A stretch of DNA of 64,000 nt from an uncultured Chloroflexia bacterium (GTDB taxonomy: Bacteria > Chloroflexota > Limnocylindria > Limnocylindrales > CSP1-4): the NCBI GenBank assembly GCA_963707215.1, contig CAVPPB010000001.1, positions 384,001 to 448,000 of the forward strand. The letters are read 5' to 3'. Below, piece after piece: positions 5,592 through 64,000 of the stretch. The first letter of the stretch is position 1. Each line of letters begins with the position of its first letter. A model generated the notes under the pieces. That model was not told where the DNA came from. It saw only the letters and a program-made list of their open reading frames with translations, and ran no database searches. The position numbers and the translations under genes were made by a program.

Positions 5592-6341
5592 ATGACCGGG
5601 AGGCTTCGCGTCGGCACGAGCGGCTTCTCGTATCCGGGCTGGGCGCCGCGGTTCTACCCGGCCGGGACCCCGGCCGGTCGACGCCTCGAGACCTATGCCC
5701 GGCAGCTCGGTGCGGTCGAGCTGAACAGCACCTTCTATCGCCGGCCTTCGGAGCGGCAGCTCGTCGAGTGGGCCGCCGCGACACCCGGGGGGTTCCGCTT
5801 CGTGGTCAAGGCGCAACGCGGCGCAACCTGGAGGGCCTTCCGGTCGCCTGACCCCGCGGCCAGCCTCGCCTGGCTCTGTGAGCCGCTGCCGGGCCTGGGC
5901 GATCGACTGGGTGCGGTGCTGCTCCGGGTCCCCGATGACATGACCCGTGACGATGACCGCCTCGACGCGGTCCTGGGCGGCTGGCCGACGAGCGTGCCGC
6001 TGGTCGTCGAGGCACGAGACCCCAGCTGGCACGTCGACGAGGTGTTCGATCGGCTCCGTCGGGCAGAGGCGGTGCTCTGCGCGACCGACCTCGACGGCTC
6101 GCCGCCGCCGGACCTGCGGGTCCTGGGCAGCTTCCTCTACCTGCGGCTTCGCCGCGGGGGCTATGACGACGAGGCGATCGAGGCCTGGGCCGGCCGGCTC
6201 GCCCCGTTCCTGGCCGCCGGTATCGACGCCTACGCCTTCGTCCGCCACGACGACGACGGTGCCTCGGCTGCCGTGGCAGCGGCGCTCGGCGAAGCCACGG
6301 TGTCCCGGCTGCGTCGCGAGCGCCGCCCGGACGACGGCTAG
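5592..6341 (+). CDS. DUF72 family protein
   Basis: VGTSGFSYPGW, VELNSTFYRRP, FRFVVKA, YLRLR. Confidence 0.9.
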   Translation: MTGRLRVGTSGFSYPGWAPRFYPAGTPAGRRLETYARQLGAVELNSTFYRRPSERQLVEWAAATPGGFRFVVKAQRGATWRAFRSPDPAASLAWLCEPLPGLGDRLGAVLLRVPDDMTRDDDRLDAVLGGWPTSVPLVVEARDPSWHVDEVFDRLRRAEAVLCATDLDGSPPPDLRVLGSFLYLRLRRGGYDDEAIEAWAGRLAPFLAAGIDAYAFVRHDDDGASAAVAAALGEATVSRLRRERRPDDG

Positions 6342-6664
6342 GGTCGCGAGCCCTCGGCCGGTCCGAAGACCACGAGGACGACGAGATCCTCCGCGATCGC
6401 CTCGAAGCGATGCGGGACGCCGGCGGCGACGAATGCGCTGGTCCCAGGTCCGACGGATCTGGCCTCGTCGGCCACGCGCAGGACGGCGCGGCCGCGGATG
6501 ACGTGGTAGAGCTCGTCCTCCCCGTGCGGCGCCTGTGGGTCGACCCCGCCGGCCGGCAGCACGTAGAGGCCAGCGCTCAGGTCCGGGACCCGGAGGAACT
6601 CGAGGTACGACTCGCCGGCGGCAGCGTGTCGATCGAGCAGGTCGGCGAGGTCGTGGACGTCCAT
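6338..6664 (-). CDS. Cupin domain protein
   Basis: YLEFLRVPDLSAGLY..DPQAPHGEDELYHV...VPHRF cupin motifs; GGAG RBS. Confidence 0.85.
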   Translation of the reverse strand: MDVHDLADLLDRHAAAGESYLEFLRVPDLSAGLYVLPAGGVDPQAPHGEDELYHVIRGRAVLRVADEARSVGPGTSAFVAAGVPHRFEAIAEDLVVLVVFGPAEGSRP

Positions 6665-6748
6665 GGCATCTCCCCGGCTCCGGTCGGTCCGTTGCGCCTG
6701 CCGGTCTGCGACGATCCGGACCGAGGCGGCCAGCGTACGACAGGCGCG

Positions 6749-8071
6749 ATGACCACCCCCGCCCGCCGACGGACCGCTCGCACCACAGCCAGGACCGCCG
6801 CGATCATCGTCCTGGGAGCCGCCCTGGCGACCCTCCTTTCGGCCTGCGGCGGAGGACCCACCCCTCCGCCACCGACGCCCACGCCGACGCCGGTCTCCCT
6901 CCCGTCGCCATCGCCGTCGCCGGTCACGCCCGCCCCTTCTACGAGCCCGGATCCAAGCCCGGGCCGACCTGCGGGCGGCGACCCCATCGGGCTGACGGTG
7001 CGCCTCGAGCCCGTCATCGATGGGCTGGCGGCTCCCGTCGCGGTACGCTCGCCCGGCGACGGCAGCGGTCGACTGTTCGTCGTCGAGCAGCCGGGGCGGA
7101 TCCGGATCGTCCGGGACGGCCGGCTCCTGGAGCGACCGTTCCTCGACATCGAGCGGCTGGTCGGGTCCGGTGGCGAGCGTGGCCTGCTCGGGCTCGCCTT
7201 CCACCCACGGTTCGGCGCGGGCGATGACCGGTTCTTCATCGACTTCACCGATCGCGAGGGCACCACCGTCATCGCCGAGGCCCGTCCGTCCGAGGACCCG
7301 GACGTCGCCGACGGTGCCTCGCTCCGGGTCCTGATGCGGATCGCGCAGCCCTTCGCGAACCACAACGGCGGCGACGTGGCCTTCGGGCCAGATGGCCACC
7401 TCTACGTGGCGCTGGGTGACGGCGGATCGGGTGGGGATCCACTCGGCTCCGGCCAGCGCCTGGACACGCACCTCGGCAAGATCCTGCGCATCGACGTCGA
7501 CCGGACCGAAGGCTCGGCCGCCTATGCCATCCCGCCCGACAACCCCTTCGTCGGTGTCGAGGGAGCCAAGCCGGAGATCTGGGCGCTCGGACTCCGCAAT
7601 CCGTGGCGGATCTCCTTCGACCGGGCCACCGGCGACCTCTGGATCGGGGACGTCGGCCAGGGAGCCATCGAGGAGGTCGACCGGCTCACCGCGGCGACCG
7701 GCGGCGGACGCGGGGCCAACCTGGGCTGGAACCGGATGGAGGGCTCGGCCTGCTTCCCGGGCGGCACCGCCTGCGACCCGGCGGGCCTCGTCCTCCCGCT
7801 GGCCGAGTACGGTCACGATCTCGGCTGCGCTGTGACCGGCGGGTACGTCTACCGCGGATCCGATCACCCGGACCTGGTCGGCGTGTACGTCTACGCGGAC
7901 TACTGCTCGGGACGAGTGTGGGGCGTGTCTTCCGGCGGTCCCGACCGCCAGGATGCCGTGCTGCTGGCAGAGACCGGGGTGACGCTCTCGTCGTTCGGCG
8001 AGGACGATGCCGGCGAGCTGTACGTCACGGATCTGGGCGGTCGGCTGCTTCGGCTCGTGGAGGCCGGCTGA
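6749..8071 (+). CDS. PQQ-dependent sugar (glucose/sorbosone) dehydrogenase lipoprotein
   Basis: Lipobox LLSAC, Pro/Thr linker, GERGLLGLAFHP, NHNGG, FGPDG, GLRNPWR, GDVGQ, SSFGED. Confidence 0.92.
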   Translation: MTTPARRRTARTTARTAAIIVLGAALATLLSACGGGPTPPPPTPTPTPVSLPSPSPSPVTPAPSTSPDPSPGRPAGGDPIGLTVRLEPVIDGLAAPVAVRSPGDGSGRLFVVEQPGRIRIVRDGRLLERPFLDIERLVGSGGERGLLGLAFHPRFGAGDDRFFIDFTDREGTTVIAEARPSEDPDVADGASLRVLMRIAQPFANHNGGDVAFGPDGHLYVALGDGGSGGDPLGSGQRLDTHLGKILRIDVDRTEGSAAYAIPPDNPFVGVEGAKPEIWALGLRNPWRISFDRATGDLWIGDVGQGAIEEVDRLTAATGGGRGANLGWNRMEGSACFPGGTACDPAGLVLPLAEYGHDLGCAVTGGYVYRGSDHPDLVGVYVYADYCSGRVWGVSSGGPDRQDAVLLAETGVTLSSFGEDDAGELYVTDLGGRLLRLVEAG

Positions 8072-60706: not shown

Positions 60707-62857
60707 TCAGGCGCCGGCCCGCTGCCGGGGCTTCGGCGGGAGTCGTCGCCCGTCGTCGACGAGATACCAGCGGAACCAATCACGGACCTGCTCGAGATGG
60801 GCGACCCGGCGGTACGGTGTCCCTGAGCGGGTGAGCTCGTGCGTCTCCCCGGGCACCCGCATGAGGCGTACCGGCCGGCCCAGCGAGCGCAGGACCGTGA
60901 AGAGCGACTCCGCCTGGGCCACCGTGGTCCGGATGTCGTCCTCCGCGTGCTGGATCAGCAGCGGGGTCCGGATGCCCGACGCGTAGGTCAGCGGCGAGAT
61001 CCGCGCGTAGAGCGCGAGATCCTCCCACGGCGCGACCCCGAACTCGAGACGGGCCCAGTCGCCGGAGGCGATGTCCCCGGTCAGCATGAGCGTCGTCATG
61101 TCGCTGACCCCACGACAGGTCATGGCGGCCCGGAAGCGGTCGTCGTGGGCGATGATCCAGGTCGTGAGGTAGCCCCCATACGAGCCCCCCGTGACACCGA
61201 GCCGATCCGGATCGGCCCGCCCCTCGGCGACCAGGTCGTCTACCCCGGCCAGCACGTCGCGCATGGGCCCATCGCCCCAGTCGCCGGCGTTGGCGGCGTT
61301 GAAGGCCTGGCCGTAGCCCTCCGACCCGCGCGGATTGGCAGCGTAGACCCCGATCCCCTGCCCGGCCAGGACCTGCCACTCCCACATCGGCGCCCAGCCG
61401 TACAGCGTGTGCGGCCCACCATGGATCTCCAGGACGAGCGGCGCCTCGCGGGGTCCGGCGGTCGCGTCGCCGGGGATCGGCGGGTAGTACCAGCCCTGGA
61501 TCCGCCGTCCGTCCACCTCGGACCAACGCTCCTCGGGCTCGACGAGCGCGACGCCGTCGAGGAGGTCGCGGTGCAGGTCGGTCAGGCGGCGGGGCTTGAG
61601 CGAGCCGCGGACCCGGCCGGCCGGGACGTCGACCAGGTGGAGGTCGGCCGGTGAGGTCGCCGTCGCGATGAGCAGCGCGACCCGGGTCGAGCCCCGGGGC
61701 CCCGGGACCGCGTCGACCGACACGACATAGTGGCGTCCCTGCGTGAGGCGCTCGACAGAGCCGTCGGCGACGGCGATCCGCCAGAGCTCGTACGAACCAT
61801 CGACGGGGGCCGTGAAGAGGATCCAGCGCCCGTCGGCCGTCGGCAGCAATCGCTCGCCACGACCGGGCGAGAGGTCGCTGTTCATCGTGGACCCCGGCAT
61901 GAGGTCATGGGCGCCGCTGAGGTTCCGGCCGCCGGTCCGGAGATCATCCGAGCCGTCGGCAGCGAACAGCCAGACGTCCGCCCTGCTACCGGCGCCGACA
62001 GGGAAGCGGTGGCCCAGGAGGGCCAGGGTGCGCCCGTCCGGCAGCCAGGTCGGCTCGAAGAAGACCCCGCCACCGCCGGTGATCCGGGTGACCCGGCCGC
62101 TGGCGACCTCGACCACCCAGACGTCGCTCTGGAACGTCTTGTCCGCGCCGGGTCGTCGATCCGCGACGAAGGCGACCCGGCTGCCGTCGGGGGACCAGGC
62201 CGGCGACTCCTCACTGGTCCGGCCTCGGGTGAGCTGGCGGGCCTCGCCGGTCCCGGCGTCGACGATCCAGAGGTGCGATACACGGTCGTCGATGAAGCCT
62301 CGACCGTTGTAGAGGTACCCGAGCCGGTCGAGGTAGCGGATGTCGGAGCGGGGCGGACGTCCCGGCTCCGACTCGCCGAGCCGGCGCAGCCGGGCGTCGC
62401 GGCGGCGATCGGCGGCCAGCGAAGTCGTCGAGACCAGGAGATAGCGTCCATCCGGCGACCACGACAGGCCGTCGACCCCCCGAGGCAGATCGGTCAGGCG
62501 ACGGGCCTCGCCGCCATCTACCGGCAGGAGGTGGACCTGGCTGCCGTCCTCGCGCTTCGCCGGATCGCGGTCGACGCCGGGCGGTGGGTCCTCCACGAAC
62601 AGCCGGCGGTCCGACAGGAAGGCCAGGGTCCGGCCGTCCGGCGACGGTCGGGCATGGAGATCGCGCCGGGAGCCGAGGGTGACCTGCCGGGTCGCGCCGT
62701 CATCCAGGCCGACGCTCCAGATCGCCTGACGGTAGCCGTCGAAGCCGGGCGCCACCGTCGCGATCGTCATCGTCGCAGACCGCCCGTCGGGCGACAGCCG
62801 CGGGCCGGTGGGGACCCGCAGTCGGTACAGGTCGTCGGGCGAGGCTGGTCGGGGCAT
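60707..62857 (-). CDS. S9 family peptidase with beta-propeller
   Basis: Repeated (W)SPDG blades, IHGGPH, NPRGSEGYG, GGSYGG, EDDIR, ETHELTRSG. Confidence 0.93.
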   Translation of the reverse strand: MPRPASPDDLYRLRVPTGPRLSPDGRSATMTIATVAPGFDGYRQAIWSVGLDDGATRQVTLGSRRDLHARPSPDGRTLAFLSDRRLFVEDPPPGVDRDPAKREDGSQVHLLPVDGGEARRLTDLPRGVDGLSWSPDGRYLLVSTTSLAADRRRDARLRRLGESEPGRPPRSDIRYLDRLGYLYNGRGFIDDRVSHLWIVDAGTGEARQLTRGRTSEESPAWSPDGSRVAFVADRRPGADKTFQSDVWVVEVASGRVTRITGGGGVFFEPTWLPDGRTLALLGHRFPVGAGSRADVWLFAADGSDDLRTGGRNLSGAHDLMPGSTMNSDLSPGRGERLLPTADGRWILFTAPVDGSYELWRIAVADGSVERLTQGRHYVVSVDAVPGPRGSTRVALLIATATSPADLHLVDVPAGRVRGSLKPRRLTDLHRDLLDGVALVEPEERWSEVDGRRIQGWYYPPIPGDATAGPREAPLVLEIHGGPHTLYGWAPMWEWQVLAGQGIGVYAANPRGSEGYGQAFNAANAGDWGDGPMRDVLAGVDDLVAEGRADPDRLGVTGGSYGGYLTTWIIAHDDRFRAAMTCRGVSDMTTLMLTGDIASGDWARLEFGVAPWEDLALYARISPLTYASGIRTPLLIQHAEDDIRTTVAQAESLFTVLRSLGRPVRLMRVPGETHELTRSGTPYRRVAHLEQVRDWFRWYLVDDGRRLPPKPRQRAGA

Positions 62858-62958
62858 CCACTCCTCCCGGGTTCCTTCGGGCAATCGGGCCCGGGCCGGC
62901 CGCCAGTCTAGCGGCTACCATCGAGTGCGATGCGCCCTCTCGGGCCCCGGTGCGAGCC

Positions 62959-63762
62959 ATGACCGACCAGCTGTCGCTCGACCTCGACGACGCCCTGCCC
63001 CATCCTCCGAGCCTCCTTCGACCGATGCTGCCTCGTCCGGCCGCCGAGCCGTTCGACAGCGCCGATCACCTCTTCGAGCCGAGCTGGGGTGGGCGGCGGG
63101 CCCTCGCGTTCCTCGAGCCGGCGGTGGAGCGCGATGCAGGGGGTCGCTGGCTGACGGCGACCGGGGGGCCATCGCTCCGCCTCCTCGATGCCGGCGGGAC
63201 CGACCTGGCCGGGCTCGCCCCCGAGCTCGACGAGCTGGCGCTCCGGGTCGAGGCCCGGTCCGCGGTCCTCGATGGCGAGATCGTCGCCACCGAGCCGTCG
63301 GGTCGGGCGGATCGCGGCGCCCTCGACGTCCGTCTGGGCGGTCGCCCCGGCCCTCCGCTGACCTACCTCGTCTTCGACCTCCTCTACCTGGACGGCCGGC
63401 CGCTCCTGGGGCAGCCACTGGCTCGCCGGCGCGAGGCCCTGCGGCGGATCGTCCGGCCGGGACCGGAGATCGTGGCGGTCCCGGCGATCCCGGGCGAGGG
63501 ACGGGCCCTCCACGATGCGGTCACCGCCCAGGGGCTCGCCGGCGTGCTCGCCCGGCAGCGGGCCAGCCCCTACCTGCCGGGGGTCCGCAGCCGCCTCTGG
63601 CGTTCGATCACCGCCGGGGCTCCCATCCTGTCGTCGGCGTCGACGGGCGACCATGCGGATGCGCCACCGGGGTCGGACGCGGCGGGCGCCGACGTGCCGG
63701 CGCTCGGCCGAGGCTCCATCCTGGCGGTGATCCGCAAGCTCCCGCTGGAGGACGAGCCGTAG
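62959..63762 (+). CDS. ATP-dependent DNA ligase (LigD-like) adenylation-domain homolog, apparently catalytically inactive
   Basis: LRPML, FEPSWGGRRA (KxDGxR degenerate), VLDGEIV, YLVFDLLYLDG, PLARRREAL, AGVLAR, SPYLPGVRS..WRSI; no OB domain. Confidence 0.8.
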   Translation: MTDQLSLDLDDALPHPPSLLRPMLPRPAAEPFDSADHLFEPSWGGRRALAFLEPAVERDAGGRWLTATGGPSLRLLDAGGTDLAGLAPELDELALRVEARSAVLDGEIVATEPSGRADRGALDVRLGGRPGPPLTYLVFDLLYLDGRPLLGQPLARRREALRRIVRPGPEIVAVPAIPGEGRALHDAVTAQGLAGVLARQRASPYLPGVRSRLWRSITAGAPILSSASTGDHADAPPGSDAAGADVPALGRGSILAVIRKLPLEDEP

Positions 63763-63837
63763 CCGACGTCCGGGCGGATCGATAGGCTCGGTCGTGGTGA
63801 TCGGACCAGGAGGTGAGCCGGCGGCGAGCCGAGGCGC

Positions 63838-63999
63838 CTAGTCGCCGCGGCGGGCCACGGCAAGGAAGAGCCGCAGGCCGGGTCGCTGGCCGTAGAGCAG
63901 GACCCCGGCCCGGTAGACGCGGACCGCCACGGCCGCGGCGGCCACGACCGACCCGGCCAGGATGCCGAGCGACAGGGCGAGCTCCCACGGTTCCACTCG
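63838..63999 (-). CDS. ABC-2 permease C-terminal fragment (runs off window edge)
   Basis: Manual translation VEPWELALSLGILAG...AVRVYRAGVLLYGQRPGL...*. Confidence 0.75.
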   Translation of the reverse strand, partial: RVEPWELALSLGILAGSVVAAAAVAVRVYRAGVLLYGQRPGLRLFLAVARRGD

Positions 64000-64000
64000 G

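Follow-up and report, generated by a model that had tools for sequence, protein, structure and literature searches.

The 64,000-nucleotide window analysed here (positions 384,001 to 448,000 of contig CAVPPB010000001.1, from an uncultured Chloroflexia bacterium) carries a gene, at 62959..63762 on the forward strand, whose product is a pseudo-ligase: a nucleotidyltransferase (NTase) domain of the LigD/LigC type that has neither an OB-fold domain nor the lysine of motif I. Comparison with homologs supports a conserved pseudo-ligase rather than a recently decayed gene. We refer to this protein as the window's type, to distinguish it from a more degenerate version encoded downstream of ku in related genomes, the ku-linked or sister type. 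In our opinion, there is about an even chance that the protein is a non-catalytic adaptor or scaffold of nonhomologous end joining (NHEJ), derived from a Ku-operon ligase and equipped with a clamp-binding N-terminus.

The gene and its parts are arranged as follows. Column counts here and below refer to the 120 homologs listed from a word-indexed search, which found 1827 proteins at E <= 0.001 among 8000 scored candidates.

62959..63762, forward strand: pseudo-ligase coding sequence, 267 amino acids plus stop, read from the ATG at 62959; a GTG in the same frame at 62950 is an alternative start.
62965..62985, forward strand: N-terminal peptide D3-Q-L-S-L-D-L9, a candidate beta-clamp-binding hexapeptide, followed through the 120 homologs and present also in the ku-linked type.
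63016..63615, forward strand: NTase (adenylation) domain, residues about 20-219, from PF01068, Foldseek and an AlphaFold2 predicted local distance difference test score (pLDDT) of about 97.
63082..63099, forward strand: degenerate motif I, SWGGRR for canonical KxDGxR, with Lys replaced by Ser, Asp by Gly, and Arg kept (column counts).
63265..63285, forward strand: motif III, VLDGEIV, kept (D105 and G106 each 120/120, E107 118/120).
63538..63555, forward strand: degenerate motif IV, AGVLAR for canonical EGxxxK; the Glu position is Ala in 98 homologs and Gly in 15, the Lys position Arg in 118, Lys in one and Ala in one.
63598..63612, forward strand: degenerate motif V, WRSIT for canonical WxKxK; Trp in 119 homologs, Arg in 115, and Ile (66) or Val (51) at the second Lys position.
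63616..63714, forward strand: Ala/Gly/Pro-rich linker, residues 220-252, predicted to be disordered (pLDDT 52-68, many alignment gaps, a ratio of nonsynonymous to synonymous differences, pN/pS, of 0.91).
63715..63747, forward strand: C-terminal peptide SILAVIRKLPL, including a predicted helix at residues 252-260; followed through the 120 homologs (pN/pS 0.29) and common to the ku-linked type.

The first-pass annotation, made from the letters of the window alone, had described an intact open reading frame (ORF) with a LigD/LigC adenylation scaffold and no OB-fold domain. Both statements are borne out. The frame is open for 270 amino acids when read from the GTG (62950..63762, forward strand); read from the ATG at 62959, the protein begins MTDQLSLDL. 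Every motif quoted is found at the place given for it: LLRPML at residues 19-24, VLDGEIV at 103-109, YLVFDLLYLDG at 136-146 and, in the loop, SPYLPGVRSRLW at 203-214. A Pfam scan matches the protein to PF01068 (E 2e-13; 51 bits, the cut-off being 26.2) and returns no match to the OB-fold domain PF04679. Twelve ligase models of NCBIfam are matched, those of LigD and NHEJ-ligase types first, and every score lies far under the curated cut-off (85.8 against 227.75 bits for TIGR02779; NF007210 is likewise below its own). The nearest solved structure is the ligase domain of M. tuberculosis LigD (1vs0, E 8.9e-14). The HMMER local alignment to 1vs0 starts past motif I; the pairing of SWGGRR with KxDGxR comes from the NCBIfam matches and the family alignments.

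The AlphaFold2 model, built on 121 family members, has a mean pLDDT of 89 and reaches about 97 over residues 20-220, which amounts to a confident NTase fold. Confidence falls to 59 at residues 1-10, which are flexible, and to 52-68 in the linker (221-250). A linker and a single short helix (252-260) are all that the model places past residue 220, in agreement with the missing OB-fold match. Foldseek returned only NTase domains of ligases, with archaeal ligases and M. tuberculosis LigD on top (probability 1.0).

The replacement of the chemistry residues in motifs I, IV and V (SWGGRR at residues 42-47, AGVLAR at 194-199, WRSIT at 214-218), which the first-pass annotation had also read, is evident both in the sequence and in the column counts. 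The motif I Lys position is occupied by S in 77 homologs, A in 19, T in 10, H in 5, F in 3, V and Y in 2 each, and W and N in 1 each; K is found in 0/120. The motif I Asp position is G in 116/120, while the motif I Gly and R47 are invariant, as are F and D of motif IIIa (120/120 each). Among 149 representatives, the sequences with KWDG, EGxxAK and WxKxK form a set clearly apart from those with WGG, AGxxAR and LWR. Because the adenylate-accepting Lys, the motif I Asp, the Lys residues of motifs IV and V, and the OB domain are all lost, the protein is predicted to be incapable of self-adenylation and of DNA sealing. A displaced nucleophile elsewhere in the protein was considered and dropped, since no Lys-dominated column occurs anywhere in the alignment of 120 homologs.

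The altered state is shared by the whole family. The 120 homologs are 54-100% identical across almost the full length, and their source names are Candidatus Limnocylindrales, Chloroflexota and a few Candidatus Dormibacteraeota. An exhaustive search of 1.84 billion cluster representatives found 42 at E <= 1e-30, beyond which matches merge into ordinary ligases of 300-350 amino acids; the clusters that the protein atlas holds are from Chloroflexota and bear only the generic name "ATP dependent DNA ligase domain-containing protein". Recent decay is not borne out: close homologs do not retain KxDG in a single case (0/120). The ratio of nonsynonymous to synonymous substitution rates (dN/dS) in the three closest ortholog pairs is 0.18, 0.24 and 0.27, far from 1, and the N-terminal QLxL is nearly invariant (Q4 and L5 in 119/120). 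The frame is intact at 18 of 19 orthologous loci; at the remaining one, L014, there is an in-frame TGA and the start could not be set. In-frame stops noted in six orthologs were dropped, since the profile match had simply run on past their natural stop codons. The genome with L014, G381, has two near-identical copies of the gene (L014, G381:C6:48-827, and G381:C7:450085-450864). The L014 copy lies at a contig edge, with its TGA in the linker before the C-terminal peptide; duplication in the assembly or a sequencing error is the probable cause.

Outside the NTase domain, conservation is concentrated in two terminal peptides. The N-terminal family pattern is M-x-[DE]-Q-L-[STDN]-[LF]-x-L (D in 107, Q in 119, L in 119, S in 106, L in 112 and L in 114 of 120), and the start codon lies exactly two codons ahead of D-Q-L at all 18 orthologous loci with a readable start. 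The beta-clamp-binding consensus is QL[SD]LF or QLxLxL. The fit of MTDQLSLDL to this motif, already pointed out in the first-pass annotation, stands: QLxLxL is matched at each defining position, at an exposed, flexible N-terminus, and the Q and three L residues are kept in 112-119 of the 120 homologs. In two ku-linked orthologs the peptide is exactly QLSLPL, and a related protein lacking the motif I Lys, P0198, starts MPQLSLF, the pentapeptide form. The C-terminal peptide is a feature absent from the first-pass annotation. Its consensus, P-V-L-A-[LV]-[IF]-x-R-L-P-[LF], is followed by a few acidic residues and stands behind a linker of variable length (P108, V100, L95, A117, R112, L119, P119 and L98 of 120). 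Within the same genome, LigD (ligase, OB and primase-polymerase, or Prim-Pol, domains) has neither terminal peptide.

Two other proteins of the genome carry motifs of the clamp-binding form. An ImuB-like ORF (L078, G000:C3 about 1107523-1110915, minus strand; a weak match to IMS, E 7e-9, in a frame of 509 amino acids) has the canonical QLSLF, and DinB (L077, G000:C2) has QMALF. These sequences show the local form of clamp-binding motifs.

A sister family of the same class carries the ku-linked type, a more degenerate pseudo-ligase of about 230 amino acids, in which motif I reads FEPWWPGxR, motif III is DGT (the Glu is lost), motif IIIa is [SA]DLL (the adenine-stacking Phe is lost) and the SPYxPG loop has decayed. 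It too is OB-less, with [DEN]-Q-L-x-L-x-[IL] three codons past the start; the linker is short, and the C-terminus carries RPxLAL[IL]xRLPL. In this type the terminal peptides have outlasted the active site.

The gene directly upstream was Ku, by Pfam, at 7/7 loci first examined. A profile of the sister type then matched 44 of 121 genomes of the class: 39/40 in the sister family, 5/35 (two genera) in the window's family, and 0/39 and 0/5 in two further families. In all 44, by coordinate comparison, a Ku match on the same contig and strand directly precedes the pseudo-ligase (42/42 without G473 and G482, which are unpublished genomes). A sample with one genome per genus (41 genomes, many of them incomplete metagenome-assembled genomes, MAGs) contains the sister type in 7 further or overlapping genomes; six of these adjoin Ku, and the seventh, G422, has no Ku match. 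In G088 the gene order is ku, pseudo-ligase, ligD. The pseudo-ligase adaptor proposed in the first-pass annotation is upheld in part, in its pseudo-ligase state (0/120 K) and its conserved N-terminal motif (119/120); the Ku link, which that annotation missed, moves the most likely context from replication to end joining.

Two side observations concern these loci. In many sister-family genomes a second Ku paralog, which scores better (E about 1e-50 to 1e-56), is found away from the pseudo-ligase (for example G213:C159, G488:C6, G455:C4). At 4 of 7 sister-family loci inspected (L070, L071, L072, L074), 2-3 kb separate the ku-pseudo-ligase pair from an ATP-dependent ligase of the Lig1/LigB type that has a DNA-binding region at its N-terminus (EDKYDGIR).

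The window's type itself is restricted in distribution. Across 401 genomes of the phylum, full-length matches (profile positions 1-254, E < 1e-86) occur only in its own GTDB family, where 18 of the 23 other genomes have one; the remaining matches are LigD-level and cover the domain alone. In the one-per-genus sample, with the own genome counted, the window's type is found in 26/41 genomes (25/40 genera). The 23 higher-quality family genomes divide into 18 with the window's type, three with the ku-linked type (G088, G253, G365) and two with neither type and no Ku (G187, G245). Thus, a pseudo-ligase of either type accompanies Ku in 21/21 of these genomes with Ku and is present in 0/2 of those without. 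Both types together occur in none of the 23, and in the one-per-genus sample only in G422, a genome with 5% contamination. The first-pass annotation had stated that no Ku or ligD partner is adjacent. This is correct for the window, but the genome does hold both elsewhere, as well as DnaN, with Ku on another contig. The LigD ORF of this genome (L005:2753-5599, minus strand; G000:C3 about 797753-800599) covers only Prim-Pol profile positions 1-172 of 254; beyond them comes a tail of about 200 amino acids rich in Arg, Gly and Ala, which suggests that the polymerase domain contains a frameshift or an assembly error.

Both terminal peptides have counterparts in catalytically active ligases. Active NTase-OB ligases of another Chloroflexota family (L056-L061; P0179, P0181), members of the same ligase clade, are 343-345 amino acids long, begin with DQL[QS]IEL and end with a hydrophobic-Pro-hydrophobic LTRFPF. 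Unlike the pseudo-ligase, they keep KWDG (as FEVKWDGLR), EGxxAK, WLKVK and the OB domain. Ku is directly upstream at two of the three loci scanned with Pfam (L056, L058), and at L060 a metallo-beta-lactamase-fold gene stands in its place. A further family has a variant that has lost the motif I Lys and still has the OB domain (FEVAW[GDEN]GVR, ending QLPRLPL), with Ku upstream at one locus (L063). A third family (L066, L067) shows the order ku, ligase, and a fused phosphoesterase-ligase, confirmed by Pfam at L066, and in a fourth, which belongs to the class of the window's genome, an active ligase next to ku ends in RPRLVVLQSLRLTD. In total, Ku is directly upstream at 4/5 of the ligase-like relative loci scanned with Pfam.

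There is also a wider OB-bearing group of ligase-like proteins, of about 320-360 amino acids, in which motif I is degenerate (xWGGVR, or K replaced by A) and the motif V lysines are lost (L062-L065, at about 5950-7050 each; P0195, P0215, P0221, P0226, P0190, P0214, P0188, P0222, P0249). Ku upstream is confirmed by Pfam at one of the four loci of this group (L063).

The proteins found make up a series that runs from the active ku-linked ligase, through a form lacking the motif I Lys and retaining the OB domain, to a form lacking both within the ku operon, and finally to the relocated copy in the window. The simplest history would begin with a ku-operon ligase that already bore the terminal peptides. 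Catalysis would have been lost first and the OB domain next, as the fused LigD took over sealing, and in most genera of the window's family the gene would then have left the ku operon. In those genera only about 1.1-1.3 kb separate the ku match from the ligD match; to judge from the coordinates, no further gene would fit between the two. A quick maximum-likelihood tree of 86 NTase domains recovered a clade for the window's type (28 rows; SH-like approximate likelihood ratio test, SH-aLRT, 97) and another for the ku-linked type (SH-aLRT 100), with the backbone unresolved. A tree constrained to unite both types in one clade had a log-likelihood 13.9 above that of the free quick tree (p of the approximately unbiased test 0.775). 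A common origin of the two types is thus compatible with the tree data, and even preferred by them, though not proven.

Selection preserves the NTase fold plus the two short terminal peptides, and an adaptor in Ku-dependent end joining is therefore the most likely role of the protein. The N-terminal QLSLxL peptide would dock in the hydrophobic cleft of the beta sliding clamp, and the NTase domain and/or the C-terminal LAxIRRLPL helix would contact Ku (or LigD, or the DNA end). Ku-bound ends would thereby be tied to clamp-associated factors, or the repair complex would be stabilised. Every one of these binding partners is inferred. Ku of M. tuberculosis touches the LigD NTase domain with its C-terminus, at D522, K579 and L580, according to the accessible part of PMC13717202. 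In the 1vs0 alignment these residues pair with A99, E159 and A160 of the pseudo-ligase, and their identity is not kept. The more specific proposal, that the protein is a third dedicated component of NHEJ in this Chloroflexota class, a ligase-derived pseudo-enzyme that would bridge Ku-bound ends (through the dead NTase domain or the C-terminal helix) to the beta clamp (through the N-terminal QLxLxL), is tentative, and we put it well short of an even chance.

Several observations weigh against an end-joining adaptor with a clamp-binding N-terminus. The N-terminal peptide is not specific on its own, since a loose form of the pattern lies near the N-terminus of 14 ORFs in the same genome, and it could bind Ku instead of the clamp, given that the relatives are ku-linked. 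The synteny conserved in the family takes in an S9 peptidase, deoC and an ABC-2 transporter but nothing connected with repair, and the window's type adjoins ku in 0/23 genomes that hold both; where the two share a contig, in two genomes, they are 121 kb and 1.46 Mb apart. In the one-per-genus sample the association with Ku is weak (both present in 29 genomes, pseudo-ligase alone in 3, Ku alone in 6, neither in 3). The window's type presumably is the equivalent of the ku-linked type, yet the free tree itself did not join the two. Most nucleotide-contacting residues stay in the window's type (R47, D105-G-E107, F139-D140, R199, R215), so the protein may bind a nucleotide, a DNA end or a nick; the sister type has lost further pocket residues, and thus the pocket is not what both types conserve. 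Finally, pN/pS pooled over 153 ortholog pairs is 0.57, a poor measure that overstates relaxation because synonymous sites are saturated in this gene (G+C content at third codon positions, GC3, about 0.9). By region, the pooled values are 0.91 in the linker, 0.54 in the domain, 0.63 in residues 1-22 and 0.29 in the C-terminal peptide.

The strongest alternative is that the protein is purely a scaffold or regulator of Ku and LigD, with the clamp not involved and the terminal peptides acting as Ku- or LigD-docking motifs inherited from stand-alone ku-operon ligases. We give it a real but minor chance. Active ligases and K-less variants whose genes directly follow ku bear the two peptides, which the LigD of the same genome lacks. 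Moreover, a stand-alone ligase would need to be recruited by Ku without the polymerase domain through which mycobacterial LigD binds Ku. On the other hand, the N-terminal peptide matches the clamp consensus at every defining position, one relative switches to the pentapeptide QLSLF, as in known clamp motifs, and we know of no bacterial Ku-binding peptide of the QLxLxL form.

A decoy or brake, in which the dead NTase domain would occupy the Ku C-terminal arm, or a 5'-phosphate end or nick, and so restrain NHEJ in competition with LigD, seems unlikely and in part overlaps with the adaptor reading. It would make use of the contact that the C-terminus of Ku makes with LigD's NTase domain in M. tuberculosis (described in the accessible part of PMC13717202) and of the many nick- and nucleotide-contacting residues that the window's type keeps. 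It leaves unexplained why the two terminal peptides are the best-kept elements while the pocket decays in the sister type.

That the window's type, once out of the ku operon, acquired a function outside DNA repair is, in our opinion, distinctly unlikely. Its separation from ku (0/23), its conserved peptidase and transporter neighbours, its linker, much longer than that of the ku-linked type, and the three genomes with a pseudo-ligase and no detected Ku would be in keeping with such a change. However, both terminal peptides are unchanged between the types, which share a genome only in G422, and presence tracks Ku exactly in the 23 higher-quality genomes, the three exceptions being MAGs of 85-90% completeness.

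It is more improbable still that the protein binds a nucleotide or adenylated DNA non-covalently, or performs only the third step of ligation on pre-adenylated nicks left by abortive ligation. R47, DGE of motif III, FD of motif IIIa, and Arg at the motif IV and V Lys positions are nearly invariant in the window's type, and Lys-less mutants of viral ligases can seal pre-adenylated nicks. Nevertheless, nick sealing in the ligases studied needs the motif I Asp and the OB domain, both of which are gone here, and in the sister type the Glu of motif III and the stacking Phe have disappeared as well, so that the pocket is not the conserved feature. A decaying pseudogene or annotation artefact can be practically dismissed: the catalytic residues are gone and evolution is fast (54-65% identity within the family, against 79-96% for DnaN and 67-88% for Ku), but the frame is intact at 18/19 loci, many residues are invariant in the 120 homologs, the fold is confident and the gene is present in 25/40 genera.

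In comparison with known systems, the pseudo-ligase has the same NTase fold as LigD/LigC-type ligase domains (M. tuberculosis LigD, PDB 1vs0, 6nhx), which is also the group whose relatives are encoded with ku, and it shares their scaffold motifs (the PML start, LDGE, FDLL, PLxxRRxxL and SPYxPGxRSxxW). It differs in that the motif I Lys and Asp, the motif IV Glu and Lys, the motif V lysines and the OB domain are missing and the terminal peptides are added. Hda, a DnaA-related AAA+ protein of replication control, carries the clamp-binding motif QLSLPL at its N-terminus. Only this hexapeptide, which has the same form and lies at the extreme N-terminus, resembles the pseudo-ligase.

A precedent in kind is ImuB, a Y-family polymerase that is catalytically dead and that, in the mycobacterial mutasome, binds the beta clamp (from the accessible part of PMC11791113). 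ImuB is a pseudo-enzyme scaffold that keeps its fold and a clamp-binding peptide, as the pseudo-ligase would be; the folds and pathways are unrelated, and for the pseudo-ligase the clamp link comes from the sequence motif. Eukaryotic DNA ligase IV has a non-catalytic structural role in NHEJ, seen with the catalytically inactive enzyme, as the available portion of PMC11754673 describes. The likeness is that of a ligase body that aids end joining without catalysis, although ligase IV is an active enzyme in vivo. XRCC4-family proteins have no homology to the pseudo-ligase. Eukaryotic NHEJ accessory factors (the XRCC4/XLF/PAXX scaffolds) dock on Ku through short terminal peptides, whereas bacterial Ku is without the eukaryotic von Willebrand factor A docking domain.

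Bacterial NHEJ is usually described as a two-protein system of Ku and LigD. The present gene points to a conserved third player, which would have been made by killing and trimming the operon's own ligase with the docking peptides kept. If these peptides bind the clamp and Ku, they would show how stand-alone NHEJ ligases are recruited and would connect end joining with clamp-dependent DNA synthesis. The protein would then bring a ligase fold to the few repair pseudo-enzymes of bacteria, of which ImuB is one. Should the bridging proposal hold, the protein would be functionally analogous to the eukaryotic XRCC4/XLF-type scaffolds, and in bacteria Ku-dependent end joining would for the first time be physically linked to the clamp. 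The series from ligase to pseudo-ligase is, in addition, a natural experiment that asks what in a ligase matters beyond catalysis. A literature search, with subscription-only papers outside its reach, found no bacterial DNA pseudo-ligase, no dead ku-operon ligase and no link of Ku or LigD to the clamp. None of the three is mentioned in the accessible part of a LigD review (PMC8656161), and the accessible part of PMC10140301 contained nothing relevant.

Upstream of the gene, two minor features can be placed:

62916..62921, forward strand: TACCAT, a -10-like box read by eye, 37 nucleotides ahead of the ATG.
62930..62962, forward strand: a putative upstream ORF of 10 codons, MRPLGPRCEP; its TGA and the main ATG share bases (ATGA).

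In 16 of 18 orthologs (upstream regions of L009-L026, read by eye), a TACCAT-like box lies 6-9 nucleotides ahead of the start codon. This spacing suggests leaderless mRNAs, which would fix the N-terminus of the protein. The box is often preceded by AGTCTAGCG, giving a TAGC-n-GCTA near-palindrome. L019 resembles the window in that the box lies further upstream and a short ORF (5 codons, against 10 in the window) overlaps the main start, as ATGA or GTGA. A promoter and terminator scan of 62700-64000 found nothing, and a LexA-box-like GAAC-N4-GTTC is absent upstream of the 18 orthologs.

In the genome of the window, the pseudo-ligase gene is preceded by a divergent S9 peptidase gene and then deoC, and followed by a convergent ABC-2 transporter gene and then ppk1, CYTH-CHAD and Ppx. 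The last three form a polyphosphate cluster past the end of the window (L004:10823-16727; G000:C1 about 450800-456700), in which ppk1 encodes 750 amino acids, the CYTH-CHAD protein has 619, and a Ppx/GppA-family protein of 578 amino acids is encoded on the opposite strand.

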